From: Waterburya sp.
GTDB lineage: Bacteria; Cyanobacteriota; Cyanobacteriia; Cyanobacteriales; Xenococcaceae
Length of the DNA: 64,000 nt
NCBI GenBank assembly: GCA_965217895.1
Contig: CBDCJV010000002.1
Coordinates: 4,480,001 to 4,544,000 of the forward strand
Direction of reading: 5' to 3'
Of the stretch, positions 1 through 28,265 are shown piece after piece. Positions within the stretch are counted from its first letter, which is position 1. Each line of letters opens with the position of its first letter. A program made the translations under genes and the position numbers. Under the pieces are notes generated by a model. The model made no database searches, had not been told where the DNA came from, and saw only the letters and a list, made by a program, of their open reading frames with translations.

Positions 1-770
1 TTAATCTTTTCTAGAGTTTGATTCCAGAATCTATTTTGTAGGTCTCTTCCGTTAGGAAGACGACTTCTTAGTTGCTTTTGAAGGTTTTCGATTTCTATTT
101 CTTTTTTACGTCGACGCAGCGCATACCCTTCTGGATCTTCGTCATCTTCGTTTTTTTCATCAATCTGGCAACCATTTTTGAGAAGATACACTATGGCGCA
201 TTTGCTGGCACTATCAAGAGTTTCATCGTATCTGTCAAGCAAAGAATTAAAGATAGTAGAGCTTTTTTTCTTGGATTTAGTTTTTTTCCGTTTTTTATGC
301 TTCTTTTTAGGATTGATTTTTTGTTTATCTATTTGCTGCTCGATTTGCTGAAGTATTTTGAGTGCCAGGAGTCTAATTTCTGCCAAATCTTTGCCAGACT
401 CTGTTTCTAATTCGCGATCGCTTTTTAGAATTGTCAACCAGCGTTGTTTTCTTTCAATTCTCTGACGTAGTTTCTTCTGAACTTTTAGCCAGGATTTAAA
501 CATATAGTGAACTAAGGCGATTGCTGAAGTGTAAAAGCGTCCTGGTTGATTGGCAAAAGGTTCTCGTTTTTTGAGCGGAGCGCATAGCTCTTTAATAGGT
601 TCCTGTGGCAAAGTCCCTTTCTCAAACCACTCTTTAAAATCTTTATGATCGGGTACTTGAACTAATAATTCATTGATTAAGGGTGTATTTTTCAAGGTCA
701 TTAATTCCCAAAGATATTTTAATGACTCTGATTTGGCTACTATTCGACATTCGATGGTTTTAACGCTCAT
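1..770 (-). CDS. cas12k: Type V-K CAST effector Cas12k (C2c5), 5' part; continues beyond the left edge
   Basis: Manual translation from ATG at 770: MSVKTIECRIVAKSESLKYLWELMTLKNTPLINELL...QPGRFYTSAIALVHYMFKSWLKVQKKL...KQRWLTILKSDREL, the typical Cas12k N-terminus. Same strand as tnsBC-tniQ. Missing from the ORF track because it runs off the window. Confidence 0.93.
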   Translation of the reverse strand, partial: MSVKTIECRIVAKSESLKYLWELMTLKNTPLINELLVQVPDHKDFKEWFEKGTLPQEPIKELCAPLKKREPFANQPGRFYTSAIALVHYMFKSWLKVQKKLRQRIERKQRWLTILKSDRELETESGKDLAEIRLLALKILQQIEQQIDKQKINPKKKHKKRKKTKSKKKSSTIFNSLLDRYDETLDSASKCAIVYLLKNGCQIDEKNEDDEDPEGYALRRRKKEIEIENLQKQLRSRLPNGRDLQNRFWNQTLEKI

Positions 771-883
771 GAAATTAGCTCACCTATTAATACAAGCTTA
801 TTAATATAATAGGCGATCGCTAAACTAAAATTAATAATTTTTAGTCCCAAAACGCGAGTATTTTGTTTTTCTTAACAGTCTGA

Positions 884-1099
884 TTAAAAGATTATTTTCT
901 TAATTTGATTCAACTGATCTGCCAAGCTAAGAGTTCGTAAAACGTGATCGGGATGTTTTTCAAATTTTTTGCCCCAATTGCCAACAGTTCTAGGGCTTAA
1001 GCCAGTAGCCTCTGCTAGAGCATTGAGACAAGCTTTTCTAAATCCTCTTTGTTCTGGGGATAATTCTACCCACTTTTGACAGTATTCCCAAGGGGTCAA
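884..1099 (-). CDS. Small HTH-like protein, putative regulator, directly upstream of cas12k
   Basis: 71 aa with LAEATGLSPRTVGNW, a helix-turn-helix-like pattern; TTG start. Confidence 0.65.
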   Translation of the reverse strand: MTPWEYCQKWVELSPEQRGFRKACLNALAEATGLSPRTVGNWGKKFEKHPDHVLRTLSLADQLNQIKKIIF

Positions 1100-1181
1100 T
1101 GTAGATAATTGAGCGCATCAGTTTTATCTTCAATCTTTTGTTTACCTATGTCTATAAATACTAAAAAGATAATTATATAAA

Positions 1182-1200
1182 TAGTCATAGATCGTGACTA
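1182..1200. promoter_or_regulatory. Palindromic operator candidate TAGTCA-N7-TGACTA upstream of the small HTH gene
   Basis: Perfect 6-bp inverted repeat in the AT-rich intergenic region. Confidence 0.45.
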
Positions 1201-1328
1201 ATTATTACTCATGAATTATGATTACGCTAATTTAGTGAGTTATTGCGCTCTAAAAAGCATACTCAAGCTGGTTTGGCTCAAACTTTAAACTAGTAATGAA
1301 GCTAAAAGCGTATTTTGTCAGTTGAATA

Positions 1329-2285
1329 TTAGCTTTTGCAGTAGGTTTGGTAAGCTTTTTGAAATTCTGCTGCTATTGCATCTGCAAACCAATCGGGATT
1401 TAAAATCTCAGCATTAGAACCATATTGCATGATCCTTTGTCGAAACCAAAATAAACAATCTTCATTGGTTTTTATTTCTACCCATTCACGATCGCAATCA
1501 CTGTCTACTATTTGCTCGCGATCGCGACGAGGCTGATAGTTGCTCATGCCTTTACTAAGACGATATGTAATTGGTAATGTTGCAAACACAGTAGCAATCC
1601 ATTGGATTTGTGATGGCGGAAACACTCGAAGAATGCGATCTACTCTAAAAGGCTGATTTTTCTCTACCCAATGATTACGGTAATTCCAATTTGGAAGATA
1701 GGCAAAAAGATAAAGAACTCCATTGTGCAGTCTTAATTCCGAGCGATCTATATCCCAATTGTTTTCTTTGCCTTTGCTACTTCGATATCGAATTGAGTAC
1801 CGACACCCTTTATCAATTCTTTCTTGAAGTTGTGTCACAATCTTTTGAATTTTTGTTTCAGCATAGTCTACTGGAGGGCTAAAGTTAACTTTAAGATTAG
1901 GTAACTGCTTTCTATCATCTAAGTTGCCTATTCGTGCGATTTGTCCCGCTTTAGCGGAAAAACCCATGTCAGACAACATATAGGCTGCGGTGCATAATGC
2001 TTGTTGTTGTTGCTCGGAAAGAAGAAGGGGAAAACTAGATTCTAATAATTTATAAGGTTTGCTTGGCGCACTCTCTATTTTAAAACCACAATTTTTAAGC
2101 TTGCTAATGATTCTCGTTACTTTCTGTAAAGTATCTCCGTCTTCTTTTCCATATCTAGCAAGAAATTGACCCATTTCATCGGCTAATTCTGTTCTTTTTC
2201 TCGGTTTCTCTGCCAACAGCCTAATTATTTGAAGGACAAAAGCAACCTGGCTATATTCGTTATCATTTTTTGATGTCATATCCAA
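1329..2285 (-). CDS. WYL-domain transcriptional regulator (wHTH-WYL-WCX), type I-D associated
   Basis: N-terminal wHTH, LYLFAY...FRVDRI WYL motif, C-terminal IMQYGSNAEILNP; divergent from cas3. Confidence 0.88.
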   Translation of the reverse strand: MDMTSKNDNEYSQVAFVLQIIRLLAEKPRKRTELADEMGQFLARYGKEDGDTLQKVTRIISKLKNCGFKIESAPSKPYKLLESSFPLLLSEQQQQALCTAAYMLSDMGFSAKAGQIARIGNLDDRKQLPNLKVNFSPPVDYAETKIQKIVTQLQERIDKGCRYSIRYRSSKGKENNWDIDRSELRLHNGVLYLFAYLPNWNYRNHWVEKNQPFRVDRILRVFPPSQIQWIATVFATLPITYRLSKGMSNYQPRRDREQIVDSDCDREWVEIKTNEDCLFWFRQRIMQYGSNAEILNPDWFADAIAAEFQKAYQTYCKS

Positions 2286-2375: not shown

Positions 2376-2555
2376 ATGCCAACTGTAGAACAAGCTAAAC
2401 AAACTGTAATACTGTTGCATTGGATATCAACTTATTTTCAGCCAATTAATATTGCTAGATACGATCGCAAATATAAGACAATCTATATCTAAGTAGGTGA
2501 GACAGACAGCATTGCTTTAATTATTGAATTTAATGGTAGGTGGAAATTTGTCTAA
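2376..2555 (+). pseudogene. Small DUF6888-like gene with an in-frame stop; paralog of 5869-6051
   Basis: MPTVEQAKQTVILLHWISTYFQPINIARYDRKYKTIYI*VGETDSIALIIEFNGRWKFV with TAA at 2490-2492; alignable by eye to the 60-aa protein at 5869-6051 (NGRWKFV vs NGRFKFV). Confidence 0.7.
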
Positions 2556-2742
2556 ACCAATTACTGAAATGACCATAGCGGAATTAAAAAGCTGTTTATC
2601 TAAACATAGAAATGACGACGAAAAGTTCAGTCAGGCTATGGGCAAATTATTGAAAAAACTGCCAGATCGAGAAAGATGGAATCAACCTTTCGCCAGTCTA
2701 GAAGGTGCAGAACAGTTTTTTCAACAAAATCCTCTTCAATAG
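2548..2742 (+). CDS. Small DUF6887-like helical protein; paralog of 5682-5876
   Basis: TTG start overlaps the upstream stop; MSKPITEMTIAELKSCLSKHRNDDE resembles MSETIENMTLEQLSQYMKDNKDNHE. Confidence 0.6.
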   Translation: MSKPITEMTIAELKSCLSKHRNDDEKFSQAMGKLLKKLPDRERWNQPFASLEGAEQFFQQNPLQ

Positions 2743-2830: not shown

Positions 2831-4927
2831 ATGAAAATAATTCTTAAGCCTTTATACTCAAAGCTAAATGTTGGGGTGCAAGGTTGCCCTGTAGGATGTC
2901 AAAGCACTTGTAAAGTAAAACCATATTTAGCTTGCGATAGTGAATGTCCGCTATCTTCTCATCAAGCACAAACTTATAAACACATAACTCAATCGGATGC
3001 AGATATTATCTTCAACACTTCTGCAACGGGTGATGGTAAGTCTTTAGCTGCTTACTTACCTGGATTGCTAAATAGCCAATTTCGGACAATGGGCTTGTAT
3101 CCAACAATTGAATTAGTAGAAGATCAAACCAAACAGCAAAAGGAATATCATACTCGTTTCGATCTCGATCCTATGTATCGAATAGATCGTCTTTATGGCA
3201 TGGAATTAAGCCGTAGGATAAAAGAACAAGACACAGATCGCTTCAATGTTTTGCTGCAATCCATAGAACAAAAGCCAGTTATTTTAACTAATCCCGATAT
3301 TTTCCATTTTATTACTCATTTTCGCTATCGCAATCCTGCTAGAAGTGCAGAAACTTTACCTTTTGCTTTAGCAGACTTTCCCGATCTTTGGGTGTTTGAT
3401 GAATTTCATATTTTTGGTTGTCACCAAGAAACAGCAGCATTAAACAGCATGGCTTTAATTCGACAAGCTTCCCCAAGAAAAAGAAAGTTTTTATTTACCT
3501 CGGCAACTCCCAGAGAAGATTTTATTCAACAACTCAAACAGGCTGATTTTAAGGTAGCAGAAGTCAAAGGAGAGTATAGCAGCGAAAACCAACCTGGATA
3601 CAGGCAAATTTTGCAGAAAGTCGAACTGGAATTTGTTCGCTTAGAAAAAGATACCAATACACTAGATTGGCTGTGTCAGAATAGCGATCGCCTTGGCACA
3701 AGTCTGGAAGCAGAAACAAGAGGTAGAGGCTTAGTTATTGTTAATTCTGTTGCTTTGGCAGGTAAAGCAGTAGCAAGATTAGAAGGATTATTACCTGATG
3801 TGATTGTCAAAGAAATTAGCGGAAGATGCGATCGCCAGGAAAAAGACGAAACGCGAAAACAATTAGAAAATGAGAATAAACCTGTCTTAGTAGTTGGGAC
3901 ATCGGCGGTTGATGTGGGAGTGGACTTCAAGATTCACTTACTAATCTGTGAGGGTAGCGACTCAGCAACAGTCATTCAACGTTTGGGACGATTAGGTCGT
4001 CATGCAGGGTTTAATAACTATCAGGCTTATGTATTAATTAACAACCATGCTTCTCATATAATTCCACGTCTGGAAGAAGAGATTAAAGATATTATCACCA
4101 GAGAACAATTAACCAAAGCTATTGAGTATGCTTTTAGTCCACCACAACAGTTTACTCAATATCGCCATAAGTGGGGTGCATTGCAAGCACAAGGAATGTT
4201 AACTGAGATGATGCGAGAAAATCCCAAGGTAATGAAACTGACTAGCGATCGCGTTAAAGCAGACTTACAGTACATTTATGGGAATAAGCTAGAATCGGCG
4301 CGTAAATACTGGTATAAGTTAAGCCAGCAGGAAAACGAAGTAGATAAAGCAATACAGACAGAAATATTGCGTTTTCGCGGTGGTTCGACTTTACAAGCTG
4401 CGGTGTGGGATGGCAAAAGATTTTATCAATACGATCTGCTGCGGTTTTTACCCTATGCCCTTGTAGAAATAATCGATCGCGATACTTATATTGCTGCTGC
4501 TACCAAACACAATCACATTGAAGAAGAATTTAATAAGAAATATATTGATGTCTATGTGCGGGTAACTGACTGGTTAGATAAGCGTCAACCCATAGAAATT
4601 AAGTGTAATCGCTACAGTCATAAATTGGAAATAGGTAATTTGTTTTTAGGCGATCGTCTAACCATAACAGGACATCCTCAATCTGAAGTAGCTAATTGTT
4701 TAAATGGCAAGAAATTACTCAGTTTTTTGATTTATCTCGGTAAAAAAAGCCAGTGGGATGTGGCGCGGATTTTGAAATTGAGTCCTTTGTTTGGATTATA
4801 TTGTCTCACTGACGGATCGAGTAATAGTTACGCTTGTGCTTTCAATCAAGATGCGATGTTACTAGAAGCTTTAAAGTTTAACTTGCCTAGAGAATTGCGC
4901 GATCGCCCTAACTGTATAATTCTCTAG
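2831..4927 (+). CDS. cas3: Type I-D CRISPR helicase Cas3'
   Basis: SATGDGKS Walker A, DEFH, SAT, QRLGRLGR; no HD domain (it is carried by Cas10d). Confidence 0.93.
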   Translation: MKIILKPLYSKLNVGVQGCPVGCQSTCKVKPYLACDSECPLSSHQAQTYKHITQSDADIIFNTSATGDGKSLAAYLPGLLNSQFRTMGLYPTIELVEDQTKQQKEYHTRFDLDPMYRIDRLYGMELSRRIKEQDTDRFNVLLQSIEQKPVILTNPDIFHFITHFRYRNPARSAETLPFALADFPDLWVFDEFHIFGCHQETAALNSMALIRQASPRKRKFLFTSATPREDFIQQLKQADFKVAEVKGEYSSENQPGYRQILQKVELEFVRLEKDTNTLDWLCQNSDRLGTSLEAETRGRGLVIVNSVALAGKAVARLEGLLPDVIVKEISGRCDRQEKDETRKQLENENKPVLVVGTSAVDVGVDFKIHLLICEGSDSATVIQRLGRLGRHAGFNNYQAYVLINNHASHIIPRLEEEIKDIITREQLTKAIEYAFSPPQQFTQYRHKWGALQAQGMLTEMMRENPKVMKLTSDRVKADLQYIYGNKLESARKYWYKLSQQENEVDKAIQTEILRFRGGSTLQAAVWDGKRFYQYDLLRFLPYALVEIIDRDTYIAAATKHNHIEEEFNKKYIDVYVRVTDWLDKRQPIEIKCNRYSHKLEIGNLFLGDRLTITGHPQSEVANCLNGKKLLSFLIYLGKKSQWDVARILKLSPLFGLYCLTDGSSNSYACAFNQDAMLLEALKFNLPRELRDRPNCIIL

Positions 4928-5190
4928 CAATAATGATACCTACATTGTAAAAAGATAAGTTTGTCGGAACTGACTTGATACACCAGCCTATGTTCTTGTG
5001 TGATTCTTCTCGACCATCTTGAACCTGAAAAATATTTAAGGTGTTCTGGTTTACCAATTCCCTCAAAAGGATTTGCAATGGTAGCTTCGACTAAATTTAA
5101 AATGCGATCGCTTATCTTCTTGTCTTTCTTAAACCACCACCGTAAATCTTCTCTAAACTGGCGATCAAAAACTACTGCCCGATTAGTCAA
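4924..5190 (-). CDS. yoeB: Txe/YoeB family toxin
   Basis: PFEGIGKPEHLK...WSRRITQEHRLVY...CRYHY signature. Confidence 0.95.
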   Translation of the reverse strand: MTNRAVVFDRQFREDLRWWFKKDKKISDRILNLVEATIANPFEGIGKPEHLKYFSGSRWSRRITQEHRLVYQVSSDKLIFLQCRYHYC

Positions 5191-5473
5191 TCTCTAATTC
5201 CTCACACAGTTGTTTTAAGGTTTGAGATTCTATCTCTTCTCCTTCTAGTCGATCTGCTCGTTCCATCGCAGCGAAGAGCTTTTGGGCATTAGCTGGGGAT
5301 TTTAATAAATGAAGAGTCTCCATCATGCTGGCAAGTTCTGAAGCTGCCAGGATAGCAACGTCTTCTTTTCCTGTTCTACTAACTATTATACAGCCACGAT
5401 CTTCGATAACTTCGTCGAGAACAGATGCTAGATTTTGGCGCAAGTTGGTATAGTTTGTCTGTTTGGCTAACAT
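5183..5473 (-). CDS. yefM: Phd/YefM antitoxin
   Basis: YTNLRQNLASVLDEV...METLHLLKSPANAQKL; overlaps the toxin start. Confidence 0.93.
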   Translation of the reverse strand: MLAKQTNYTNLRQNLASVLDEVIEDRGCIIVSRTGKEDVAILAASELASMMETLHLLKSPANAQKLFAAMERADRLEGEEIESQTLKQLCEELEID

Positions 5474-5554: not shown

Positions 5555-5665
5555 ATTTCAGTCCCGCAATTGGGATTTTAAGGTTTTCAACGAGAAGGAA
5601 AGCGGATTATCTCTCAGCTTGATTGCGCGTTTCAGTCCCGTAATTGGGATTTCGTGGTTTTCAAC
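5555..5665 (-). CRISPR. Detached mini-array: 2 degenerate repeats (5555-5591, 5629-5665) and one 37-nt spacer
   Basis: Variants of the array-1 repeat, separated from the main array by a two-gene insert. Confidence 0.9.
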
Positions 5666-5681
5666 CCACGAGTAGCTAGTT

Positions 5682-5876
5682 TCAGATAACTTGAGAAATA
5701 AAGTCACTAATAAATTGCTTCTGTTCTTCCCAAGTCGCGTCTTTCGGAACTTCCTGCCAGTCAGATTTTTGAGCAAATAAGTTGTATGCTTTTTGCCATT
5801 CTTCATGATTGTCTTTGTTGTCTTTCATGTATTGGCTAAGTTGCTCAAGAGTCATGTTTTCAATTGTTTCAGACAA
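5682..5876 (-). CDS. Small DUF6887-like protein located between CRISPR repeats
   Basis: MSETIENMTLEQLSQYMKDNKDNHEEWQKAY...; probable TTG start at 5876 overlapping the upstream stop (the ORF track gives 5897). Confidence 0.7.
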   Translation of the reverse strand: MSETIENMTLEQLSQYMKDNKDNHEEWQKAYNLFAQKSDWQEVPKDATWEEQKQFISDFISQVI

Positions 5877-6051
5877 ATTTGAACCTCCCGTTTTCATTTA
5901 TTATCATTTTAATCTGCTTATCTTTAAATCCTGCTTCTATGCGAATTAATCTGTCACCTTCAAAATATCGAAAAACTCTAATCGGCAAGCTTTTGGAAGT
6001 TAAAAATTCGCATAAAATACAGGCTCTTTGAGCTTGTTTGGCTGTAATCAT
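5869..6051 (-). CDS. Small DUF6888-like protein located between CRISPR repeats
   Basis: 60-aa intact ORF, translationally coupled to the next gene; paralog at 2376-2555. Confidence 0.7.
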   Translation of the reverse strand: MITAKQAQRACILCEFLTSKSLPIRVFRYFEGDRLIRIEAGFKDKQIKMIINENGRFKFV

Positions 6052-6139
6052 ACATATTTAATTATCTAGGTGCATTTGTTTGTTAAAACTCTCTACCTCT
6101 TAGTTTTCTGAGGTATTACGCCGTTAGTTTGTTTCGATA

Positions 6140-7770
6140 GTTTCAGTCCCGCAATTGAGATTTTGAGCTTTTCAACATTTTAAAGAGAAACAAGAAGAAT
6201 AGCCAAAATCTTGTTTCAGTCCCGTAATTGGGATTCTAAGGTTTTCAACGATATGGGTCTACTATTCAAATAGCAGAAGGAGACTAGTTTCAGTCCCGTA
6301 ATTGGGATTCTAAGGTTTTCAACACAGGTAGGTCAACGGTAGCTGAGTCATTGCGATCGCCGTTTCAGTCCCGTAATTGGGATTTTGAGGTTTTCAACCT
6401 AGCCAGGCAATATTTCCCAATCTAATAACAGTCCGTTTCAGTCCCGTAATTGGGATTTTGAGGTTTTCAACCGTGCATAACCAGCGCATTGACGCATCAA
6501 CGTTTTTGTTTCAGTCCCGTAATTGGGATTTTGAGGTTTTCAACTCCAAAGATTTTCTCAAGCAAGTGGAATCGGGTAACTGTTTCAGTCCCGTAATTGG
6601 GATTTTGAGGTTTTCAACAGCAATATTAACGATATTGTGATCGGGTTTATTGGCTCGTTTCAGTCCCGTAATTGGGATTTTGAGGTTTTCAACGTTAAAT
6701 TATTAGCTAGTTACGGAGTGCGATCGGTTTCAGTCCCGTAATTGGGATTTTGAGGTTTTCAACTTATCTCAGCCGTGGCGTTTGTCCCTTGTTCGTTGGT
6801 TTCAGTCCCGTAATTGGGATTTTGAGGTTTTCAACCAGAAGATGCTGTTCCTTTAGGCGATGCCAGTAAAAGTTTCAGTCCCGTAATTGGGATTTTGAGG
6901 TTTTCAACAAGTAGTAAGTAAAGATCTGAACTCATTACTCATGTTTCAGTCCCGTAATTGGGATTTTGAGGTTTTCAACAAAGCGGGTTCCCTAATAAAG
7001 ACCCGCTTTAACTTTGTTTCAGTCCCGTAATTGGGATTTTGAGGTTTTCAACCGTGACTGCGATCGCGGCAATTATGAAATTATTTAGTTTCAGTCCCGT
7101 AATTGGGATTTTGAGGTTTTCAACGTAGTTTACTGGTAGCTCACTCCTTACTAGTAGTCGTTTCAGTCCCGTAATTGGGATTTTGAGGTTTTCAACCGCG
7201 GTCAAATCAAAGCTCTTATAAGCTCGTGTTGTTTCAGTCCCGTAATTGGGATTTTGAGGTTTTCAACCATTCAGGAACAGCAGCTATACAGTCGTTTTCA
7301 GTTTCAGTCCCGTAATTGGGATTTTGAGGTTTTCAACAGCTATAGGTCTACGAACATAAAGCTCTCCCTATTGTTTCAGTCCCGTAATTGGGATTTTGAG
7401 GTTTTCAACTGCTAGCCATTCAAAAGCAAGCTTATAATGCAGATGTTTCAGTCCCGTAATTGGGATTTTGAGGTTTTCAACGTAGATGTGCGGGGCGTTT
7501 ACAGGCAAATGGGAAGGTTTCAGTCCCGTAATTGGGATTTTGAGGTTTTCAACCCTTAACGCTAGCGGGAACAGCAAACGCTTCTGGTTTCAGTCCCGTA
7601 ATTGGGATTTTGAGGTTTTCAACAATCATCCTAATGGAATTTACATACCAGTAATTATGTTTCAGTCCCGTAATTGGGATTTTGAGGTTTTCAACTTTCT
7701 GTGAAAATCATTGTGGAAGGTTGTAAATTTGTTGTTTCAGTCCCGTAATTGGGATTTTGAGGTTTTCAAC
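6140..7770 (-). CRISPR. Type I-D CRISPR array 1: 23 repeats of 37 nt (GTTGAAAACCTCAAAATCCCAATTACGGGACTGAAAC) and 22 spacers
   Basis: Regular repeats counted from 6140 to 7734; degeneracy increases toward 6140, so the leader is on the 7771 side. Confidence 0.98.
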
Positions 7771-7945
7771 TCCGCCACTCGAAACCATTATAAACAGAAG
7801 CTTTGACAATCAAAATTGTCGAACCTTTAATTTTTAGTTTCAAATCGAAAATTGAAATACGCATAATACAAACAGACAATTCCAGAAAGTATTTAATTAT
7901 CTAGGTTCTAGAATTTTGTCGAACCTCCCAGGGATTACGCCCAAG
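7771..7945 (-). promoter_or_regulatory. Leader of array 1
   Basis: Reverse complement shares the blocks GGGCGTAATCCCTG, CTAGAACCT, TTTGTATTATGCGTATTTCA, TTGTCAAAG and GTGGCGGA with the array-2 leader. Confidence 0.85.
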
Positions 7946-8047
7946 CTTAGGCTCATCAAAAAAAATATTTTCTGAATTGATATTAAAGCAACTATGATAA
8001 TGTGTCGAGCAAAATTGAAACAAAACTTTAACTAAAAAACTGAGTTG

Positions 8048-12096: not shown

Positions 12097-12125
12097 ATAG
12101 TCTACTGATAACTAATAACTGTTGT

Positions 12126-12866: not shown

Positions 12867-12878
12867 TAGTTTTGAAAT

Positions 12879-15808: not shown

Positions 15809-15831
15809 CAGTCAACATTTATCAGATTTTC

Positions 15832-16125: not shown

Positions 16126-16151
16126 TCGAATTATTTTCTGTCGAACTCAAG

Positions 16152-16326: not shown

Positions 16327-16949
16327 GTCGCTAACCTATTAATCCCAAGTGCGGGACTGAAACGTAATATTCTCGTTATAGTTTTTACGCACCTCCAAGG
16401 TCGCTAACCTATTAATCCCAAGTGCGGGACTGAAACATTAAAATTAATCCTTGAGTTTTTTCGTCTAGTTGTCGCTAACCTATTAATCCCAAGTGCGTGA
16501 CTGAAACGTAACATCATCAATCGGCAGTGTTTTGGTAAACTGTCGCTAACCTATTAATCCCAAGTGCGGGACTGAAACATATCAAGTAGCTTTCTAATAA
16601 TTTCTACCGCGTCGGGTCGCTAACCTATTAATCCCAAGTGCGGGACTGAAACATAACGGGTACTATTCTCAGCAATACAATTATCAGCATGTCGCTAACC
16701 TATTAATCCCAAGTGCGGGACTGAAACCAGCAGATGGGGGCGTGACAAACACGATGAAGTTTAGGTCGCTAACCTATTAATCCCAAGTGCGGGACTGAAA
16801 CATTAATTTTAATACCTGTAAATAAAATAAAACTTTAACAGTCGCTAACCTATTAATCCCAAGTGCGGGACTGAAACATATATCCTGTATTCCCCACTAG
16901 GAATGTGGTAATGTCGCTAACCTATTAATCTCAACTGCGGGACCGAAAC
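16327..16949 (+). CRISPR. Type I-D CRISPR array 2: 9 repeats of 37 nt (GTCGCTAACCTATTAATCCCAAGTGCGGGACTGAAAC) and 8 spacers
   Basis: Repeats start at 16327, 16400, 16471, 16542, 16616, 16691, 16765, 16841 and 16913 (last one degenerate). Confidence 0.98.
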
Positions 16950-20736: not shown

Positions 20737-22187
20737 CTGACAAACACCCCCATACTAGTCGGCGCACCTACTTCTGGATCGACATCTCCAATACCGCTCA
20801 ACTCGACCTGGTAGTCAAACTTTTGAGCGACACGATTTGCCCAATCTTGAAACTCCTGTCGCGTCCATTCAAAGCGATGATCGCGGTGGCGTAGCTTACC
20901 TTCGACTAGAGTAAAACGGACATTGTATTCGATATTGGGTGTGGTCACAATAACTAATTTGGGTCGGGCAAATTCAAACAAGACTCTTTCTAAAGTAGCA
21001 AGGCGGTCTAAGTCGAGATGTTCGACTACTTCTATTAGTGTAGCTGCGTCGTAACCCGTAAAACGGCGATCGCGATAAACCAGCGACCCTTGAATTAGTT
21101 GAATCTTTCCCTGCTGATGTATCGGTAGTTCGTCGAGTCTTAACCTTTTGCTAGCTATTTCTAAAGCGCGATAGGAGACATCTACCCCCGTAATCTGTTT
21201 AATATTTGGTTCTTTGAGCAAATACTGTAACAGTTTGCCTTCACCACAACCGAGGTCGATAACCCGCTTTACGTTGTAATTTTTCAAGGTAGCGGTAACT
21301 GTTCCTAATCGCTGTTGGTTGAGCGTGGGATAGGCACAAAGGACTTGTCCGCATGTACTTGTTTCCGCATCTAGAACCACGCTGTTGAGACTAATTGGTT
21401 TTTCGAGTGCTGTTTCTTGACGCTCGTCTTCCGTATCTGTTACCTCAACATCTTTACCGTCTTCTTCGGTTAACCTTTCTAAAGCAATTCGAGTTAGTAG
21501 TTTTCTGCGTTTGAGATATCGCTGGGTAATTTTATCTCGAATGGGATGATCGTTGAGCCAGCTTTTTCCATATCGCAGTAGTTTTTCGATTTCTGCTTCA
21601 CCTACCCAGTAGTGCTTATCCTCATCTAATACGGGAATTAAAACGTAAAGATGACTAAGTAAGTCGCTAAGTCTGACTGTATTAGTCAGAGTCGCGTCGA
21701 TATAAATGCTGTTAGAGTCTTCGGTATATGTTTCGTCGCCAGGTATTACTCGTCCTTCTACTTGATATCCCAAAGGCTCGAATAGTTGACGTAGAAAATT
21801 ATAACCACCAAGACAGGGCAAAACGGGTATATGTACGGTTAAGGGAATAGGCTGAGATACCAATTCTGGTAAGTTTTTACAGCGTCCTGCTAGTGCCGTG
21901 CGATAAACTTCGGCGATCGCCACACTGAGAAACGAAGATGCAACATAGGGGCGATCGTTAACGTAATGAGCTAGTGTTTGAGCTTGCCATGATTTGTTCC
22001 GAACTAATTCTACGGGATTAATGTCTAGAAGCAAGGCAGTGGTGCAGCGTTCTACGGTTGCCTCTGGATAGAATACATGTGCTTTACCAAACGATAGGGA
22101 AAAGGTCTGGCATTTATCGGGATGTTTGTGGAGTAAGTAACCCAAGTCTGTAGCGGGTTGATGGGTAGTAGTGATAGTCAACAGCAT
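20733..22187 (-). CDS. hen1: 3'-terminal RNA 2'-O-methyltransferase Hen1 (with a 22-aa in-frame insert)
   Basis: MLLTITTT..PATDLGYLLHKHP, DLGCGEG, EVVEHL, TTPNIEYN, RHRDHRFEWTR; coupled to pnkp by ATGA overlap. Confidence 0.96.
   Translation of the reverse strand: MLLTITTTHQPATDLGYLLHKHPDKCQTFSLSFGKAHVFYPEATVERCTTALLLDINPVELVRNKSWQAQTLAHYVNDRPYVASSFLSVAIAEVYRTALAGRCKNLPELVSQPIPLTVHIPVLPCLGGYNFLRQLFEPLGYQVEGRVIPGDETYTEDSNSIYIDATLTNTVRLSDLLSHLYVLIPVLDEDKHYWVGEAEIEKLLRYGKSWLNDHPIRDKITQRYLKRRKLLTRIALERLTEEDGKDVEVTDTEDERQETALEKPISLNSVVLDAETSTCGQVLCAYPTLNQQRLGTVTATLKNYNVKRVIDLGCGEGKLLQYLLKEPNIKQITGVDVSYRALEIASKRLRLDELPIHQQGKIQLIQGSLVYRDRRFTGYDAATLIEVVEHLDLDRLATLERVLFEFARPKLVIVTTPNIEYNVRFTLVEGKLRHRDHRFEWTRQEFQDWANRVAQKFDYQVELSGIGDVDPEVGAPTSMGVFVR
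21322..21383. mobile_element. 62-bp miniature inverted-repeat insertion in hen1
   Basis: Ends AGCGTGG...CCACGCT, flanked by a GTTG direct repeat; net +66 nt, in frame. Confidence 0.75.
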
Positions 22188-22249: not shown

Positions 22250-23641
22250 TCAGATCTCTACTAATGACGACTCGATATTTCTTTCCTGTTCGTCAGTTAG
22301 ATAATCTCGTTCGACATCAATAACTGATAGCGGTACATCTTCATTAATCTCTCTCAAAGAAGAATAAATATCCCATCTTTTGTCCTCCGATAAACCCCAA
22401 ACTACCAAAGTAATCTCCGACCAGTATGACAGCGGTTCGGGCTTAGTCAAATCGCCAATTACACCAATCCTACTAGGAGCAAAGCTTTCTCTGATAATTG
22501 CAGCAACCTCCCGTGCTTTTTGCCACCACTCGGTTTTACGCTGCTCATCTAGTCGTTCTAAATTCAATCTATTGAATAAAGCATCGCACCACACGGTAGG
22601 CGGTAACACCTTAATACTACTGGTCAAACCAAAAGTCATCAGCAGCATTCCGATGAGATTGCGAATGCCTGTTTTGCCACCAATATCTGGTTTGCCCTCG
22701 AAGAATTCAAATTTGGCTTCGGGACTCCAGCAAATATACTGCTCGAAACTAATAGGAGTAGGTTTTAACTGTATCTCAGGCTGAAACGGCAGTTCTCCCC
22801 AACCCAATCCATTCTCAGGGAAATGTATCTTGGAGCTGTCAGAACTCGGAGCAACTTCTAAGCGAAATAACTCTAGGTCGAATCTTGCTTCTTGCCAGAG
22901 TCGGTAAGTCAAGAATACTAAACCAGGTATGTTAGAAGGTCGGTAGCATCCGTCGAGTTCTAGCTGCTGCTGGTGAAACTTACCATCCAGGTTATGCCAA
23001 AATTCGATTTGTTCGTTTTGAGGATCGATTATCCAGTATTCTTTTACTTCACCCGCCTGATAGTAATCTTTTTTAGCTACCTTATCGGCATAGCTATGAC
23101 CAGGGAGAATCACTTCTATAACCAAATCGGCAGCGCCATCTAAATAGTAGGCTTTTAGCTGGTGTAAATGTTCGCGAGCGATAAATACGAGATCGGGAGT
23201 AAAGCCATTATCGCCGAGGCGCATCACAAAATCACGACCTAGAACCGTTCCTCCTAGAGATTCACCAATCTGCCAAAGTGCTGTAGTTAGCTTCTGCTGT
23301 AGCGAGTTATGGTCGTAGTTATTTTTGCCGTAACCCGCTGTCAAATCTTCTGCTCGGTATTCTATAGATATAGCGATCGCTTTTAAGTCGAGTAAAGTGC
23401 TACGTAGATCGTCTTCATTAATTTCTAATTGATCGAGTTCCATGCTGGCTGCTAAAGCTTTAATCCAGAGAGATATTGGAGCTAGAGCTACTGCTGCTTC
23501 TGCTCCCCAACCTTGAAGAACCTGTCGTAACAATAGACGACTGCCAACTATGGTGTTGCCGACAATCAGCTTGCCCTCGATGAGTTCTAGTTTACCTTCA
23601 GTGCCTCGGCGACAGAAATCGTTGAATAACTCAGAGTTCAT
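22250..23641 (-). CDS. Uma2/DUF820 endonuclease-family protein with C-terminal minimal nucleotidyltransferase-like domain
   Basis: FTPDLVF...ADLVIEVI...KKDYYQAGEVKEYWIIDP; C-terminal AREVAAIIRESFAPSRIGVIGDL...SEITLVVWGL. Confidence 0.75.
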   Translation of the reverse strand: MNSELFNDFCRRGTEGKLELIEGKLIVGNTIVGSRLLLRQVLQGWGAEAAVALAPISLWIKALAASMELDQLEINEDDLRSTLLDLKAIAISIEYRAEDLTAGYGKNNYDHNSLQQKLTTALWQIGESLGGTVLGRDFVMRLGDNGFTPDLVFIAREHLHQLKAYYLDGAADLVIEVILPGHSYADKVAKKDYYQAGEVKEYWIIDPQNEQIEFWHNLDGKFHQQQLELDGCYRPSNIPGLVFLTYRLWQEARFDLELFRLEVAPSSDSSKIHFPENGLGWGELPFQPEIQLKPTPISFEQYICWSPEAKFEFFEGKPDIGGKTGIRNLIGMLLMTFGLTSSIKVLPPTVWCDALFNRLNLERLDEQRKTEWWQKAREVAAIIRESFAPSRIGVIGDLTKPEPLSYWSEITLVVWGLSEDKRWDIYSSLREINEDVPLSVIDVERDYLTDEQERNIESSLVEI

Positions 23642-23668
23642 TTTTCGTATAGAGCCTGGGAAAATAAG

Positions 23669-24340
23669 TTATGAGTCGAGTTTTAGTTCGAGCTTGGTAG
23701 CTAACTGTCTTAAACTCTGTGCGATCGCGCTTTGTTTGGTATCGGCATAGGTCGATATAGGTCGAACCAAATCGATTCCGCTAATACTACAAGCCCAACG
23801 TCCATTTTCTTGCGGCAAAGCTGTGACCCGAATGGCTTCGTCAAAGAGGTCTACACTTTCTATTGCATAACTGCGACTGCTCTCAACACAATTAAACAAA
23901 TTGCTTTGCGGAAGAGTTTCGATTAGATGCGAGCGAAATGCTTCTGTGTCTACTGCTAAGTCTTGTAATAATTTAACAGCCACACCTTCACCTAAGTCTA
24001 AAATTCCCAGCATCAAATGTTCTGGCGCGATTATCGCATTGTTTTGGGTATAGTCGTCAGCCAAAGCAAAAATTCTTCTAACATTTGGAGTAAAGGGGAT
24101 TTCTGAAGCTACGAATCCCGCTCCTCTACCAATACGTGTCTCAATTCTCTCTTTCAAAACATCTGTGGTCAGAGCAACCGATGAGATATATATTGAGGCT
24201 TGATTGGTTTCTTCCTCTGAAATTCCCAACAGTAGTTGTTCGCTGCCAACGAAATTGTGTCCGAGACGACGAGACTCGATGTTTGACAGACTTATTACCT
24301 TGAGAGCTGCGACACTGAATTTGGCTTTAATCTCTCTCAT
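23669..24340 (-). CDS. Clp N-terminal repeat-domain protein with a short C-terminal alpha/beta domain
   Basis: ESRRLGHNFVGSEQLLLG...IPFTPNVRRIF...IAPEHLMLGIL; no AAA+ domain. Confidence 0.85.
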   Translation of the reverse strand: MREIKAKFSVAALKVISLSNIESRRLGHNFVGSEQLLLGISEEETNQASIYISSVALTTDVLKERIETRIGRGAGFVASEIPFTPNVRRIFALADDYTQNNAIIAPEHLMLGILDLGEGVAVKLLQDLAVDTEAFRSHLIETLPQSNLFNCVESSRSYAIESVDLFDEAIRVTALPQENGRWACSISGIDLVRPISTYADTKQSAIAQSLRQLATKLELKLDS

Positions 24341-24855: not shown

Positions 24856-25383
24856 TTAATTGTTTATTTTATTTTGATGTCTAGCCATTTTCCTAAACTG
24901 CAAACCACAATGCTGACATTCGCCGATTTCCCACTGAGAAGGAATCAAAAAAGCAGTACCGCAGTTAATACATTTAGCTAAAAAACGAACGTTGTGGAGA
25001 TCGCATCCTCTTTTATCTTTAAACTGCCATTCAATTCGGTGATGGGGTTTTTCTTGATAACAAGCAGCACACAACAAAGTGGGCTTGCATTTCATCGTAA
25101 CTCCCTTTGGTGGAAACATTAGTCTCAGGCGATCGACATCCACCATTACTATCTCAGCCAAAGCTGCTAACTCTTGCTGAGTAGGAAAGGGATTGAAATA
25201 GAACTTTTCCCATCTTGCCAAAACCGCACCTAAACCTACTACCTCTCCCAAACCGCTAGCAGCAGAGAATCTATTACCCTTAGCCCGTCGAAAGCGGCCT
25301 AAAAAATGACTAATGCTTTCTCCTTCCAATGGTTCAACTTTGGTTAGCCAATAGTGATTATTTTCTCTTACTTTTTCTTTCAT
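24856..25383 (-). CDS. tniQ: TniQ (V-K CAST)
   Basis: VEPLEGESISHFLGRFRR, RWEKFYFNPFP, Zn-finger cysteines. Confidence 0.96.
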   Translation of the reverse strand: MKEKVRENNHYWLTKVEPLEGESISHFLGRFRRAKGNRFSAASGLGEVVGLGAVLARWEKFYFNPFPTQQELAALAEIVMVDVDRLRLMFPPKGVTMKCKPTLLCAACYQEKPHHRIEWQFKDKRGCDLHNVRFLAKCINCGTAFLIPSQWEIGECQHCGLQFRKMARHQNKINN

Positions 25384-26224
25384 AAGACCATTTGGTTGAA
25401 GATATTACTTGCTTCAAAATTTCAAGATCGACTTTCTGATGACCCTGACGTAAAGATCTAATGGCAGCTTTACGCAAAACCATGTCTAATCTACCAACTA
25501 ATTTTTTCGTAGCTATTTTTAAATCACTAAATAATTTCCCTTTAGTAAGATTAGAGGGTTCGGGTAGCTGCAAAACATCTCTTTCCCAGATCGCTACCAT
25601 TTGTTTAAATTCCTTATCATCGAGGCGATCTAGTTCGTATTCTTCTAAGAAGCGATTCTCAACTTGCTCGTCGCGTTTAATTACTGCGTGCAAACGGTTT
25701 GTCGTACCTACCAGCAATACTGCTAAATTTAGCTCATCTTCATCGTAAACGTGTCTAAGATCGGAGAAGGTTTTTTGTTCGAGGTGGTTGGCTTCATCTA
25801 CAATCAACATTTCAACTTGATGAATTGCTAAGGCATCCAAAGTTCTTTCTCTAAGATCGGAAACATTTCCATTGGTGGGCTTATTCAATGCTTTGAGAAT
25901 TTTGATAAAAAATTCCCTAGAACCACAACTTACGGGAATTTGAATATAAACCACGGGTTTTATTCTTTTACCTTTGCCAGACTTAAATTTATTGTATCTT
26001 TCAGCAAAAGACTTGCAAGTCACTGTTTTACCCGAACGAGATTCACCCACCAAAAGTCCTGTACTCTTGGACATTAACAATTCATACATCCAGCTATGAC
26101 AATTTTTAACTCGCTTTAATTCAAGATAGGGTTGACGACTTAAGCGTTCTATTTCTGCTTGAATTTCGGCAGAAGGTGGTTCAAAGTCACCAAATTGATT
26201 AGCAATAGTTTGAGTGTTGGTCAT
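25358..26224 (-). CDS. tnsC: TnsC AAA+ ATPase (V-K CAST)
   Basis: GESRSGKT Walker A, MLIVDEA Walker B. Confidence 0.96.
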   Translation of the reverse strand: MTNTQTIANQFGDFEPPSAEIQAEIERLSRQPYLELKRVKNCHSWMYELLMSKSTGLLVGESRSGKTVTCKSFAERYNKFKSGKGKRIKPVVYIQIPVSCGSREFFIKILKALNKPTNGNVSDLRERTLDALAIHQVEMLIVDEANHLEQKTFSDLRHVYDEDELNLAVLLVGTTNRLHAVIKRDEQVENRFLEEYELDRLDDKEFKQMVAIWERDVLQLPEPSNLTKGKLFSDLKIATKKLVGRLDMVLRKAAIRSLRQGHQKVDLEILKQVISSTKWSYERKSKRK

Positions 26225-26237
26225 TATTTCAGTTCAT

Positions 26238-27941
26238 TTAATCTTCTTCAAATAAATCGTCCATATATTGGACTTTTAATGGAGGTGGTAGTTCTAGTTC
26301 TTCATCGTTTACCTCCAAGTCCGTTACTTCTGGCTCGGCTATGTCTAGCTTCTCAACCAATGATTTAACAGGGTTTACAGTCTGATGGGCATTCTGGCGG
26401 CGTTGTTGAAGATTGCGAGCAGCAGTTTCTTCTACAAATTCTTCTCGATCTAACATTGCCAAAATAGCTTGATTATTAATTTCCTCACTTTCATCGCGAA
26501 GAGCTTGCTTAATAGCTCGAAGATGCCTGAGAGATAATGTCCTATCTTCAATCCCCTGCGCGTGAGCATAATCGAGAAACTGTTCTGTGGAGTCAGGAAG
26601 ATGTTCGTAAACTAGAATTGTCGTAATGTCTTGAGGATCGTAGCGTATGGAGATAATTTCTCCAGCCATGCTTTTCAAGTGTTCTGACTTGTATACTAAG
26701 CTTTCAAAATTAATCGTTCCATACTTTTGAACTTTTCGCCTTTCCTGTTTCATTAAAGCAATATCTAATTCTCGCTCATCAAAAAGATAAGGATCGAATA
26801 ATAGCCCTGCCTCCCAACGCTCCATTCGACTCTGGTTTTGGCTGCGAGCATCGGTTTTCTGGTTGTATTCGTCAACTATGTAGCGCACTAAAATTTGTTC
26901 TAAGTCTTCGATTGTCAGCAGAGCATTTTTATCTACATCTTTTGGTCTTTCTTGAACGTTTCTACCCGTATATCCTGGTAGTTCGCGCAAAACGCGATCG
27001 TTCAAACTACGAAAGAATCGCTCTACAATTCCACCGTCTGATGGTCTTCTTCTTAAAGCACCACTAAATTCTAGTTCTACCGCTACTTGTTCTGTTATGT
27101 GAATCGAACGAAAGTCTTTTCCGCCGTCGGTGTAGAAGTAGTTGGGTTTACCATAGCTAGTCCACTCGTTTTTTAGTTGATACTCCGAACTATAGTGTTT
27201 GGGAAAGATAGCGTGACGTAAAGCCAAAGCATCAATGTTAGAACTAGGCGCATCAAATCCTAGATAAAATCCCATCGGACAACGCGAATAGGAATCAATG
27301 ATAATTGTCAACCAAGGGCGATCCAATACTCCGTATTCATCTACCAATCTAACGTCCAATCTAGTATGGTCGCATTGCCAAACATCATTACTGCATTCTA
27401 CTTCTAACTCTCTACCGTCACGAGCCATGTGGGTTAATCTAGAGCCAGTATATCCAGCACTACGGGCTTTGAGTTTTTTCTGTTTTTCTTCTATAAAGCG
27501 ATCTAAGATGCGATAGACAGTCTGATGAGAAGGATATTCTTTTTTCTTCAATCCTTGTTGCAAAGCTCGCCCTTTAACTTTGAGAAATACTTGATGGCGA
27601 GTAATTCTTCTACCGTCTTTGTTGCCTTGTTTATAGGTTTCTAGAATAAAGTCTTCCCAATCTTCTCCAATACGATAATGACCTTTATCAGAACGGGTTT
27701 TGGTTAATCCCACTAATCCTTGCTCGCGATACTTCTTCAGCAGTCTTTCTACAGAGCGAATTGATATCCCTAATTTCTTTGCTGCTGCTTTTTTTCTCTT
27801 GCTGTAGGTAGCGCGATCGCATGGTTCAGTCAAACTTTGAATTATCTCCATCTTTAACCTAACGTCATCGGTTATTAAATCGTCAGATGGCAATCGATTT
27901 TTATTATTAGAGTGTGTATCTTCAGAGTTTTTGGTTAACAT
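26238..27941 (-). CDS. tnsB: TnsB DDE transposase (V-K CAST)
   Basis: WQCDHT, YTDGGKDF, GGIVERFF catalytic DDE; GLTKTRSDKG. Confidence 0.97.
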   Translation of the reverse strand: MLTKNSEDTHSNNKNRLPSDDLITDDVRLKMEIIQSLTEPCDRATYSKRKKAAAKKLGISIRSVERLLKKYREQGLVGLTKTRSDKGHYRIGEDWEDFILETYKQGNKDGRRITRHQVFLKVKGRALQQGLKKKEYPSHQTVYRILDRFIEEKQKKLKARSAGYTGSRLTHMARDGRELEVECSNDVWQCDHTRLDVRLVDEYGVLDRPWLTIIIDSYSRCPMGFYLGFDAPSSNIDALALRHAIFPKHYSSEYQLKNEWTSYGKPNYFYTDGGKDFRSIHITEQVAVELEFSGALRRRPSDGGIVERFFRSLNDRVLRELPGYTGRNVQERPKDVDKNALLTIEDLEQILVRYIVDEYNQKTDARSQNQSRMERWEAGLLFDPYLFDERELDIALMKQERRKVQKYGTINFESLVYKSEHLKSMAGEIISIRYDPQDITTILVYEHLPDSTEQFLDYAHAQGIEDRTLSLRHLRAIKQALRDESEEINNQAILAMLDREEFVEETAARNLQQRRQNAHQTVNPVKSLVEKLDIAEPEVTDLEVNDEELELPPPLKVQYMDDLFEED

Positions 27942-28024
27942 GACCAGTACTGAAATTAATTGAATTAGAAATCAATTAATTCAAAATTACTATTTTGTTC
28001 AAATAGTACCAAAATTTTATCAAA

Positions 28025-28265
28025 TTTACGACACCTAATTTATTAAACTTTACAAGATCAGAAAAGCTTGCTCAGAAAAATATCCGACATATAAATATTG
28101 AAATAGTTGTGTTTACGACAAATAAATTGTGAAAACAACTAGAGAAAAGAAGAAACGGAAAAATAGTCTAAATAACAATACAATGCTTAAGCAGAAAGCT
28201 TTTGAGGATGTTTACCATAACGACATCATTTTTTTAAGTTGCGACATTTAATTATTGAATGTACA
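28025..28265 (-). mobile_element. CAST left end: terminal TGTACA plus about five TnsB-binding repeats
   Basis: Minus strand reads TGTACATTCAATAATTAAATGTCGCAACTTAAAAAAATGATGTCG...; CGACA+AT-rich repeats at ~28029, 28085, 28116, 28221, 28242. Confidence 0.9.

Follow-up and report, generated by a model that had tools for sequence, protein, structure and literature searches.

Type V-K CASTs such as ShCAST and AnCAST share a left end-homing spacer-array-tracrRNA-cas12k-cargo-tniQ-tnsC-tnsB-right end order, a tRNA target, a GTN PAM, 37-nt repeats and the lack of tnsA (PMC9938897). They are described as encoding no adaptation (PMC11406308) and, according to reviews, must borrow it in trans. In 2021 it was proposed that type I-D Cas1-Cas2-Cas4 write V-K spacers in trans, on the grounds of the PAM, a leader motif close to -44 and the length of the repeats (bioRxiv 10.1101/2021.02.06.429022). 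Type I-D is also known from CyCAST, a TnsAB-TniQ-TnsD element in which the Cascade of a complete I-D system guides transposition (PMC10293859). Complete CRISPR systems as Tn7 cargo are reported to be infrequent, with two of type III and one I-B with cas1-cas4 and cas2 listed in PMC8649781.

Here we describe a locus of Waterburya sp., lying partly in a 64,000-nt window (the whole stretch of DNA that was analysed), in which a complete type I-D system sits in the cargo slot of a V-K CAST, between cognate ends. The element shares with ShCAST and AnCAST the features listed above. Unlike in those elements, Cas4-Cas1-Cas2 and a complete I-D effector form part of the cargo, the regulator is a putative co-directional HTH-like ORF and not a divergent CvkR or Arc, and no TSD is present. 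As in CyCAST, a complete I-D system, apparently active and equipped with Cas1, Cas2 and Cas4, resides in a cyanobacterial Tn7-like element, but here Cas12k would be the targeting module, placing two CRISPR classes in one element. The locus also resembles the Tn7 cargo cases in carrying adaptive immunity, although none of those listed above is a V-K CAST or of type I-D. No description of a V-K CAST carrying I-D adaptation in cis was found in the published literature examined; the writing of V-K spacers by I-D is an idea from 2021, and its carriage in cis is what appears to be new here.

Limits and core genes of the element

The element is 30,779 bp long, beginning 2 bp past a tRNA-Phe gene to the left of the window and stopping at 28265 (Table 1). 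Both ends are cognate, intact and nearly identical. An earlier note on this DNA had described a V-K CAST with an intact I-D locus, cas4-cas1-cas2 and 31 spacers between cas12k and tniQ, and all of these genes lie where it placed them. A transposon end between cas12k and the I-D genes, which the note named as evidence against its reading, was not found; nothing end-like lies between the two ends, the sole internal TnsB-like site being one lone weak one. Extension of the contig leftward, where the note expected the remainder of the element, led to the tRNA-Phe, a transposon end, a homing spacer, V-K repeats and a tracrRNA-like region, the last characterized by a conserved block and a predicted duplex in its pairing with the repeat. 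The tRNA-side end, taken in the note for the right end, is the left end by published convention, with 28265 as the right end (PMC9938897). The homing spacer matches tRNA-Phe at 17/17 positions with a GTA PAM, 54 nt from the left end, the published range for V-K homing sites being 46-82 nt (PMC9938897).

Table 1 Features of the element and its target. Window position 1 is 4,480,001 on contig CBDCJV010000002.1 (C2); parts left of the window are given in C2 coordinates.
Feature	Position	Strand	Remarks
tRNA-Phe(GAA), target, outside element	C2:4477412-4477484	+	
Left end	from C2:4477487	+	TGTACA and four TnsB-site-like repeats; GCATT just before; 54 bases after GTA PAM
Homing unit	C2:4477812-4477845	-	truncated repeat and 17-nt spacer identical to tRNA
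V-K array	C2:4477913-4478115	-	2 identical 37-nt repeats, one 35-nt spacer, 57-nt trailing segment, one degenerate repeat
V-K leader	C2:4478116-4478323	-	palindrome homologous to leaders of I-D cargo
tracrRNA region	about C2:4478323-4478660	-	limits inferred
cas12k, 5' part	1..770	-	691 aa, open; gene end at C2:4478695, left of window; NF038191, PDB 7n3o
Small HTH-like ORF	884..1099	-	co-directional with cas12k; conserved in sibling CASTs
WYL-domain regulator of I-D locus	1329..2285	-	
DUF6887 ORF	2524..2742	+	
cas3' helicase	2831..4927	+	TIGR03158; Walker A, DEFH and motif VI present
yefM-yoeB toxin-antitoxin pair	4924..5473	-	
I-D array 1	5555..7770	-	6140-7770: 23 repeats, 22 spacers; detached pair 5555-5665: 1 spacer
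I-D leader 1	7771..8030	-	
cas10d	8152..11046	+	964 aa, HD motif intact; TIGR03174, PDB 7sba
cas7 (csc2), cas5 (csc1), cas6	11092..13676	+	
Adaptation module: cas4, 140-aa ORF, cas1d, cas2	13696..16125	+	
I-D leader 2 and array 2	16126..16949	+	9 repeats, 8 spacers
Two ORFs, 94 and 184 aa	17050..17876	-	
hen1-pnkp RNA-repair pair	18154..22187	-	TIGR04074, TIGR04075; also in both related tRNA-Phe elements
Uma2-family and Clp-N-domain cargo ORFs	22250..24340	-	not seen in related elements
tnsB-tnsC-tniQ operon, V-K type	24856..27941	-	DDE, Walker and zinc motifs present
Right end	28029..28265	-	terminal TGTACA and five TnsB-site-like repeats; ATAAG next

A 5-bp TSD matching ATAAG (28266-28270), predicted in the earlier note, which counted its absence as a refutation, is not present, the tRNA-side flank reading GCATT. 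A TSD is the mark of an insertion event and not of a CAST family. A second copy of tRNA-Phe, 47 bp long, lies at another place in the genome, and the sequence 10 bases past it is homologous to the flank right of the element. Two IS982 copies, considered as standing behind the far, inverted position of this second copy, were rejected, the flanks showing no swap. Read support covers the left 14 kb, where run contigs fill 30/30 bins in X1 and X2, no single piece spanning that stretch whole; the run contig across the tRNA-end junction reaches just 29 bases on its left side, and the right half and right junction are without read support.

Cas12k scores above the NF038191 cut-off and matches PDB 7n3o at E 3e-182, with an identical VSLG stretch. 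The transposition operon lacks tnsA, its TnsB and TnsC match ShCAST and its catalytic motifs are intact; in place of the TnsAB fusion and TniQ/TnsD with Cascade that mark type I-D CASTs such as McCAST and CyCAST, it encodes a V-K-type TnsB and a short TniQ of 175 aa. The VSLG stretch presumably lies at RuvC-I. The ORF at 884-1099, which has no Pfam or NCBIfam match, is likely a regulator of a putative HTH-like type; the label Arc was dropped, as the ORF resembles an HTH.

The type I-D cargo

The genes cas3', cas10d, cas7, cas5 and cas6 are all present and open, and the Cas catalytic motifs are intact on comparison with solved homologues, the HD motif of Cas10d (LHDYDKH) being identical to that of PDB 7sba. 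Catalytic residues are likewise present in Cas4-Cas1d-Cas2, with TIGR04093 above cut-off. Of the 31 I-D spacers, the main array 1 holds 22, array 2 holds 8 and the detached pair the remaining one.

As the canonical I-D reference we take the Synechocystis PCC 6803 kind. The cargo resembles canonical I-D in its WYL regulator, cas3', 964-aa Cas10d with HD motif, cas7, cas5, cas6, cas4, cas1d and cas2, and in 37-nt repeats ending GAAAC (PDB 7sba and 7cr6 matched). It differs in its location inside a CAST and in having one more array, placed between cas3' and cas10d, and one more ORF, placed between cas4 and cas1. Within the flanks examined, cas12k was found near 1/52 related I-D loci, that of the relative G020.

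Leaders, repeats and targets of the two array types

The V-K leader proved homologous to the two I-D leaders with which the earlier note proposed to align it, with scores of 68 and 72 against shuffle maxima of 30 and 27. Against the same V-K leader, 28 non-CAST I-D leaders had a median of 21 and a maximum of 48, and the arrays of 4 further Cas1 loci in the genus scored 16-22; among these 32 other loci tested, the match is specific to the cargo Cas1d lineage. A 50-nt motif occurs three times in the genome, in the V-K leader and in both I-D leaders. The proximal motif stands at -50 in the V-K leader as in the I-D leaders, and the distal V-K motif lies 10 bp farther from the repeat. In comparison with the 2021 trans hypothesis, the module is here in cis, its cas1, cas2 and cas4 are the only ones found in the genome, and the match extends to the distal palindrome. 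All V-K leaders tested from the genus (11/11) match the cargo leaders, some with higher scores (84) than this element's; 4/21 V-K loci were dropped from the leader test, as no repeat was found. Because the match is genus-wide and includes V-K elements without cargo, it was rejected as a sign of co-adaptation in cis.

V-K and I-D repeats are identical at just 13/37 and 17/37 positions. Spacers of the V-K family are 35-43 nt long, and the I-D ones compared 33-41 nt. The number of regular V-K spacers is 1 here, 0 in G020 and 5 in G017, where the module is present, as against 5 in G011 (no cas1 found, in a draft 86% complete) and 2 in G015; a link between a longer V-K array and the module in cis was not seen. 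The argument for I-D writing of V-K arrays from GTN-type PAMs and 37-nt repeats, brought forward in the earlier note, had already been published (bioRxiv 10.1101/2021.02.06.429022).

The V-K array has no spacer in common with the cargo arrays, and none of the I-D spacers is directed at the host chromosome. No target was found for the V-K spacer and no PAM could be derived; its 27-mer had no match, and plasmid matches stood at E about 4. A viral candidate, met through a 20-mer on 4 contigs that share their local sequence, was rejected, having 11/35 mismatches and a CTA flank. For the I-D spacers outside array 2, phage matches (E 0.1-0.5) fell on non-cyanobacterial phages with no credible protospacer, plasmid matches were to other arrays or weak, and two exact scans were empty.

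Related elements

The backbone and adaptation module recur at tRNA-Phe in two other species of the genus, G020 and G017, in a shared cas4-ORF-cas1d-cas2-array-hen1/pnkp order; the G017 element lies on two contigs, with an inferred join. Cas1 proteins of the three elements form one clade (support 100/100). In G017 the effector is type I-A-like where I-D stands in this element, and the adaptation module therefore persisted across an effector change. The sibling G011 has unrelated cargo without CRISPR at the same slot and a perfect CTTGT TSD on both sides; neither G020 nor G017 shows a TSD.

In the comparison with G020, dS was at least 0.51 for 16/17 element genes and at most 0.37 for 21/22 host pairs, with dN/dS of 0.06-0.21. 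Element genes are 2-3x more diverged than host genes, which suggests that the unit is mobile. At a second att site, tRNA-Lys, the same WYL-cas3' is joined to a CAST left end. Most relatives have a defective module: cas4 is broken in G020 and G017, and cas1 is missing in G019 and truncated in G014. The survey comprised 301 genomes, many fragmented, and 17/58 other cas12k genomes had no cas1 match. A metagenome scan gave 12 cas12k loci with upstream stretches too short to reveal cargo.

Discussion

We favor, with a probability of roughly 55%, the reading that a V-K CAST homes to tRNA-Phe with I-D cargo, and that Cas4-Cas1-Cas2 likely also write the V-K array, as a by-product. The basis for this at the level of sequence is the two ends, the homing spacer and its PAM, intact transposition and Cas genes, the leader homology, and the only adaptation module. 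In the proposed mechanism, Cas12k, tracrRNA and a 17-nt crRNA would home TniQ-TnsC-TnsB to tRNA-Phe, moving all 30.8 kb. Cas4 would pick GTN-flanked protospacers, which is the PAM required by Cas12k, and Cas1-Cas2 would integrate them chiefly at the two I-D leaders, with an occasional insertion at the V-K leader. The cargo would be retained mainly via host immunity, with guide writing as the by-product, and the homing crRNA would be private to Cas12k despite pointing at a GTA-flanked chromosomal site. Counted against are the absent TSD, the short V-K array, the genus-wide leader match, the 10-bp offset, the repeat divergence, and a module broken in most relatives.

A bolder and more tentative reading is of a self-sufficient V-K CAST lineage with its own PAM-matched spacer writer, in which Cas4-Cas1-Cas2 was kept through an effector swap (I-D versus I-A-like) and may act as a mobile helper updating arrays of the genus's other V-K CASTs. 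The helper part draws on the tested V-K leaders of the genus, which all match the cargo Cas1d lineage, the other Cas1 systems tested there having unrelated leaders. The self-sufficiency put forward in the earlier note is supported in part: the cargo slot, related layouts, homologous leader and only adaptation module agree with it, and the missing TSD, the unexpanded V-K array and a leader match found also in cargo-less V-K elements do not.

The I-D system may instead be ordinary defense cargo whose Cas1-Cas2 do not write the V-K array, the leader likeness being a relic of descent or a transcription or host-factor site. We regard this as somewhat unlikely. It agrees with the short V-K array, an array length unlinked to the module, the genus-wide match and the 10-bp offset, and defense cargo is common in Tn7-like elements (PMC8649781). 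Three other V-K loci adjoin modules of type III or with RT-Cas1, and there the leaders of module and V-K array show no match (16-22), with no spacers common to V-K and other arrays in the three type III cases; CRISPR cargo is therefore picked up without leader compatibility. Against it stand the specificity of the match for the Cas1d lineage, the proximal motif at the same -50, and the retention of the module through the effector change.

A composite origin is improbable. Here the junctions would stem from separate insertions, with I-D caught by a pair of tandem CASTs or brought in by recombination, and spread would be by recombination or a neighboring integrase element and not by TnsB. The differing flanks, the resemblance of the right one to sequence behind the second tRNA-Phe copy, and the absence of a TSD in either module-carrying relative point this way, as do the uneven dS along the element (cas2 0.25, tniQ 1.26) and a recent copy of the I-D genes in G019 (dS 0.08-0.34) for which ends were not found; tandem V-K insertions are also known (bioRxiv 10.1101/2021.08.16.456562). 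However, the ends are intact and nearly identical with no internal end, core and cargo both keep their gene order at a dS of about 0.7, and a hybrid with cognate ends would remain a TnsB substrate.

It is very improbable that the cargo contributes guides in place of writing them, with Cas12k taking up crRNAs of the I-D arrays, which offer 31 spacers, so that transposition is directed at invading DNA. ShCAST did transpose with crRNAs carrying I-D repeats, but the same work reports robust unguided transposition (PMC11300857). The predicted pairing of the tracrRNA tail is weak with I-D repeat ends (-7.3 kcal/mol) and stronger with the V-K repeat (-14.7) and the homing repeat (-18.3), and an intact I-D system should itself destroy any target chosen in this way. 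A role of the I-D Cascade as second targeting module of the transposase, for which CyCAST is the precedent, is hardly credible given the short V-K-type TniQ, TnsB and TnsC matching ShCAST, no TnsAB or TnsD, siblings sharing the core without I-D, and no I-D spacer against the chromosome.

The I-D hypothesis is a proposed answer to how V-K CASTs gain guides, and this locus is the best natural test case for it. A natural cognate set lies together here: one Cas4-Cas1-Cas2, the V-K leader, and two I-D leaders that can serve as positive controls, in a genome whose sole Cas1 is that of the cargo. If writing does occur, it would represent cross-class adaptation, in which a class 1 integrase serves a class 2 array, and a CAST able to reprogram itself. 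The locus also bears on the question of what keeps a homing guide, whose PAM is shared, out of an active Cascade that works alongside it. Should writing fail, V-K CASTs would still stand as carriers of whole adaptive immune systems.

A complete type I-D locus lies within the ends of a V-K CAST

The V-K element at tRNA-Phe in the source genome (G000; 5.3 Mb, two contigs) carries a type I-D CRISPR-Cas locus in its cargo slot. The arrangement is genuine, and a small lineage shares it. The window corresponds to G000:C2:4,480,001-4,544,000. Profile searches confirmed every gene named in the earlier note, and the 31 I-D spacers that it claimed were recovered in arrays of 22, 1 and 8. The host is a cyanobacterium, as are all titled relatives of its Cas3' for which a taxon is named, and the transposition genes match those of ShCAST. 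Alignment to solved homologues found the motifs of Cas1, Cas4, Cas12k, TnsB, TnsC and TniQ in place, and the HD motif of PDB 7sba is retained in Cas10d. By tblastn, the genome encodes one each of cas1, cas2, cas4, cas10d, tnsC and tniQ. The adaptation module (cas4, a 140-aa ORF, cas1d and cas2) includes an ORF without a family match that is common to all three CAST-borne modules (dN/dS 0.15).

Extension to the left, as suggested earlier, located a tracrRNA-like block, a V-K array and the second transposon end. That end had been sought as the right end; the naming convention of PMC9938897 makes it the left one. Over their first 24 bases the two ends have a single difference, and the element they delimit is 30,779 bp long. 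No transposon end was found between cas12k and the I-D genes; a matrix built from the nine TnsB sites of both ends detected one lone weak site inside the element.

Table. Features of the element, its surroundings and related loci
Feature	Location	Remarks
tRNA-Phe(GAA)	left of window	target side, 2 bp before element end
tRNA-side end	starts C2:4,477,487	2 bp past tRNA-Phe(GAA)
Homing unit	left of window	truncated repeat and 17-nt spacer identical to tRNA; GTA PAM
V-K array	left of window	two perfect 37-nt repeats, one spacer, one degenerate repeat
Leader, tracrRNA-like block, remaining part of cas12k	left of window
V-K repeat	L001 18079-18115	strong hairpin fold (predicted)
Sequence preceding homing spacer	L001 17829-17865	also folds (predicted)
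I-D spacer	window 7410-7444	also in G019 array 1 (30/31 bases)
140-aa ORF	window 14315-14737	between cas4 and cas1
hen1-pnkp pair	window 18154-22187	accompanies adaptation module in 3/3 elements; rearranged in G020
Tyrosine integrase	window 28435-29592	after right end
IS982 copy	window 31602-32613	beyond element; 3 identical copies in genome
Group II intron-type reverse transcriptase/maturase	window 38024-39754	beyond element; split
Siphovirus Gp157-like ORF	window 40750-41283	beyond element
Another multi-copy IS	window 43505-44664	beyond element
47-bp 3' tRNA-Phe copy and the decayed CAST behind it	G000:C2:2549277-2548394	tRNA copy inverted, with similar arm-like repeats
Inverted duplication	G000:C2:1-12000 and 3471504-3483489	at least 12 kb, 99.5% identical; contains Tn7-like end of same family; possibly assembly overlap or mobile element
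Match to G017 V-K spacer 2 (L065)	G000:C2:226203-226244	chromosomal gene end, 40/42
Sibling CAST	G011:C2:142-33073 (L064, L093)	tRNA-Thr, perfect TSD; cargo a 6212-aa ORF and adjoining secreted-looking ORFs
V-K element, tRNA-Gly	G266:C1:5649502-5669389 (L130, L131)	19.9 kb, perfect TSD ATCGC
V-K element, tRNA-Gln	G266:C1 from 6209427 (L124, L125)	25 spacers (published range 1-15)
V-K element with type III-B	G082:C1:90680-138237 (L132-L134)	system on right-end side of tnsB

The arrangement recurs in relatives within the genus

The same element, with identical cargo order, occupies tRNA-Phe on one contig of G020, damaged by a cas12k deletion of about 278 bp, a break in cas4 and loss of the right-end tip. 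In G017 the same backbone at tRNA-Phe is spread over two contigs (join inferred) and carries a broken cas4, the 140-aa ORF, cas1d, cas2, an array and hen1-pnkp, with a type I-A-like effector. Elsewhere in G017, a CAST left end lying at tRNA-Lys is joined directly to the same WYL-cas3' as in our locus. The I-D genes of G019 lie between a fragment of the HTH ORF and tnsB fragments; the spacer common to its array and ours would fit a recent exchange of the I-D locus. A Cas1 match of 89% or more turned up in 4 of the 39 genomes from this genus: three of the four lie in V-K elements, and the fourth is a fragment (G014) with no transposon gene within the 20 kb retrieved. In a set of 34 Cas1 proteins, the three from CASTs group as a single clade. 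Among 52 related I-D loci, many with flanks under 10 kb, cas12k flanks only that of G020. Most relatives have a damaged module (some breaks are possibly assembly errors), and the source genome has the sole copy seen with all parts intact.

The V-K leader matches the cargo leaders

The leader alignment proposed in the earlier note gave scores of 68 and 72, where the shuffle maxima were 30 and 27. The leaders have in common a palindrome (-208 to -156 in V-K, -198 to -146 in I-D) and, with looser similarity, a motif at -50; according to PMC6607411, I-D acquisition in Synechocystis depends on a motif within 60 bp, and 194 bp of leader give the full rate. The genome contains exactly three copies of the 50-nt leader motif. 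Against 28 non-CAST I-D leaders the median score was 21 and the highest 48; leaders were obtained from 29 of the 33 loci with full cas2, and the one beyond the 28 is the G020 cargo, which scored 74. Scores for arrays at four further Cas1 loci in the genus were 16-22. All 11 V-K leaders tested in the genus matched leader 1 (42-84), with or without cargo, which indicates that the compatibility is real and not special to carriage in cis. None of six V-K leaders from outside the genus exceeded its own shuffle maximum.

The reading we favor, at a probability of roughly 0.55, is that the locus is carried as immune cargo and that its adaptation module is also able to add spacers to the V-K array, at a low rate. 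Against active writing, regular V-K spacers number one, zero and five where the module is present (G000, G020 and G017), and five and two where no module was found (G011 and G015); the damage to the module in most relatives points the same way. A locus that is a passenger only is rather unlikely.

Core and cargo diverged together

The predicted target site duplication matching ATAAG (window 28266-28270) is absent, the 5-bp flanks being GCATT and ATAAG. The sibling element of G011, whose core is the same and whose slot holds cargo other than CRISPR, is flanked by CTTGT on both sides, so the family does make TSDs. At a distance of 1.96 Mb there is a second tRNA-Phe copy, of 47 bp, that resembles the distal attachment site of the integrase at window 28435, and our right flank is homologous to the sequence that begins 10 bases beyond this copy; the CAST likely sits within an integrative element. 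The copy is followed by a second, decayed V-K CAST, of which an end, a homing spacer, repeats and a cas12k fragment can be recognised. Either the two junctions arose in different events, we infer, or bases were later lost on the tRNA side. With mismatched flanks, a single recent insertion is harder to argue, while the I-D locus still lies inside the ends.

Between G000 and G020, dS was at least 0.51 in 16 of 17 element genes and at most 0.37 in 21 of 22 host pairs (22/28 ORFs passed the filter). Against G017, 11 element genes gave 0.49-1.31 with a host median of 0.24 (19/23 ORFs), and against G019 eight I-D genes gave 0.08-0.34 with a host median of 0.28 (36/53). For G011, dS was 0.52 in tnsB and 1.7 in rpoB. 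All computable dN/dS values were 0.30 or lower. Core and cargo thus diverged in step with each other and not with the host, although the host filter favors conserved genes and recombination could leave the same dS pattern as transposition. Within the family, homing targets are tRNAs for Phe, Thr, Ser and Lys. That the structure is a composite not moved by TnsB is improbable.

Spacer sources and previous reports

No spacers are common to the V-K and cargo arrays, and target searches found no spacer targets; both results count against active writing. Use of borrowed I-D guides by the V-K system is very improbable, and targeting through Cascade is hardly credible. The 42-nt spacer 2 of G017 matches a gene end in G000 where a GT-containing flank lies on the opposite strand only, as if it may have been taken up inverted.

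Writing of V-K spacers by I-D systems was already argued from PAM, 37-nt repeats and leader in bioRxiv 10.1101/2021.02.06.429022, and the mechanism is not new. PMC10293859, in the portion consulted, calls several cas genes near tnsC cargo without detail, so such loci may sit unremarked there. A V-K CAST with I-D or other adaptation modules as cargo was not described in the mostly open literature searched, though Table S1 of the bioRxiv preprint may list such elements. The cis arrangement, effector swap and genus-wide leader match appear new.

CRISPR loci occur in other V-K elements

Near-full cas12k was found in 59 of 301 genomes of the class (81 matches), and the 58 of these besides G000 had 87 cas1 matches, in 41 genomes. 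A cas1 lay within 30 kb of cas12k at 3 of 80 other loci against 0.6 expected (P about 0.02 if clustering in defence islands is disregarded; coordinates compared by eye), a lower bound because contigs are fragmented. One has a perfect TSD and RT-Cas1, and two adjoin type III systems.

The tRNA-Gly element of G266 holds RT-Cas1, cas2, a 46-repeat array and cas6 between right end and tnsB, with no effector gene recognised within it and one stop in cas12k. The tRNA-Gln element of the same genome adjoins cas6, cas2, cas1 and a type III-D system with unrelated leaders; its right end was not found in 100 kb. In G082, a type III-B system with RT, cas1, cas2 and a 66-repeat array lies between V-K ends whose flanks have 8 bases in common and no exact 5-bp TSD.

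At all three loci the V-K leader did not match that of its neighbor. These loci indicate that V-K elements acquire CRISPR loci repeatedly, and Cas4-bearing, leader-compatible CRISPR cargo is confined to this lineage among the V-K elements seen.
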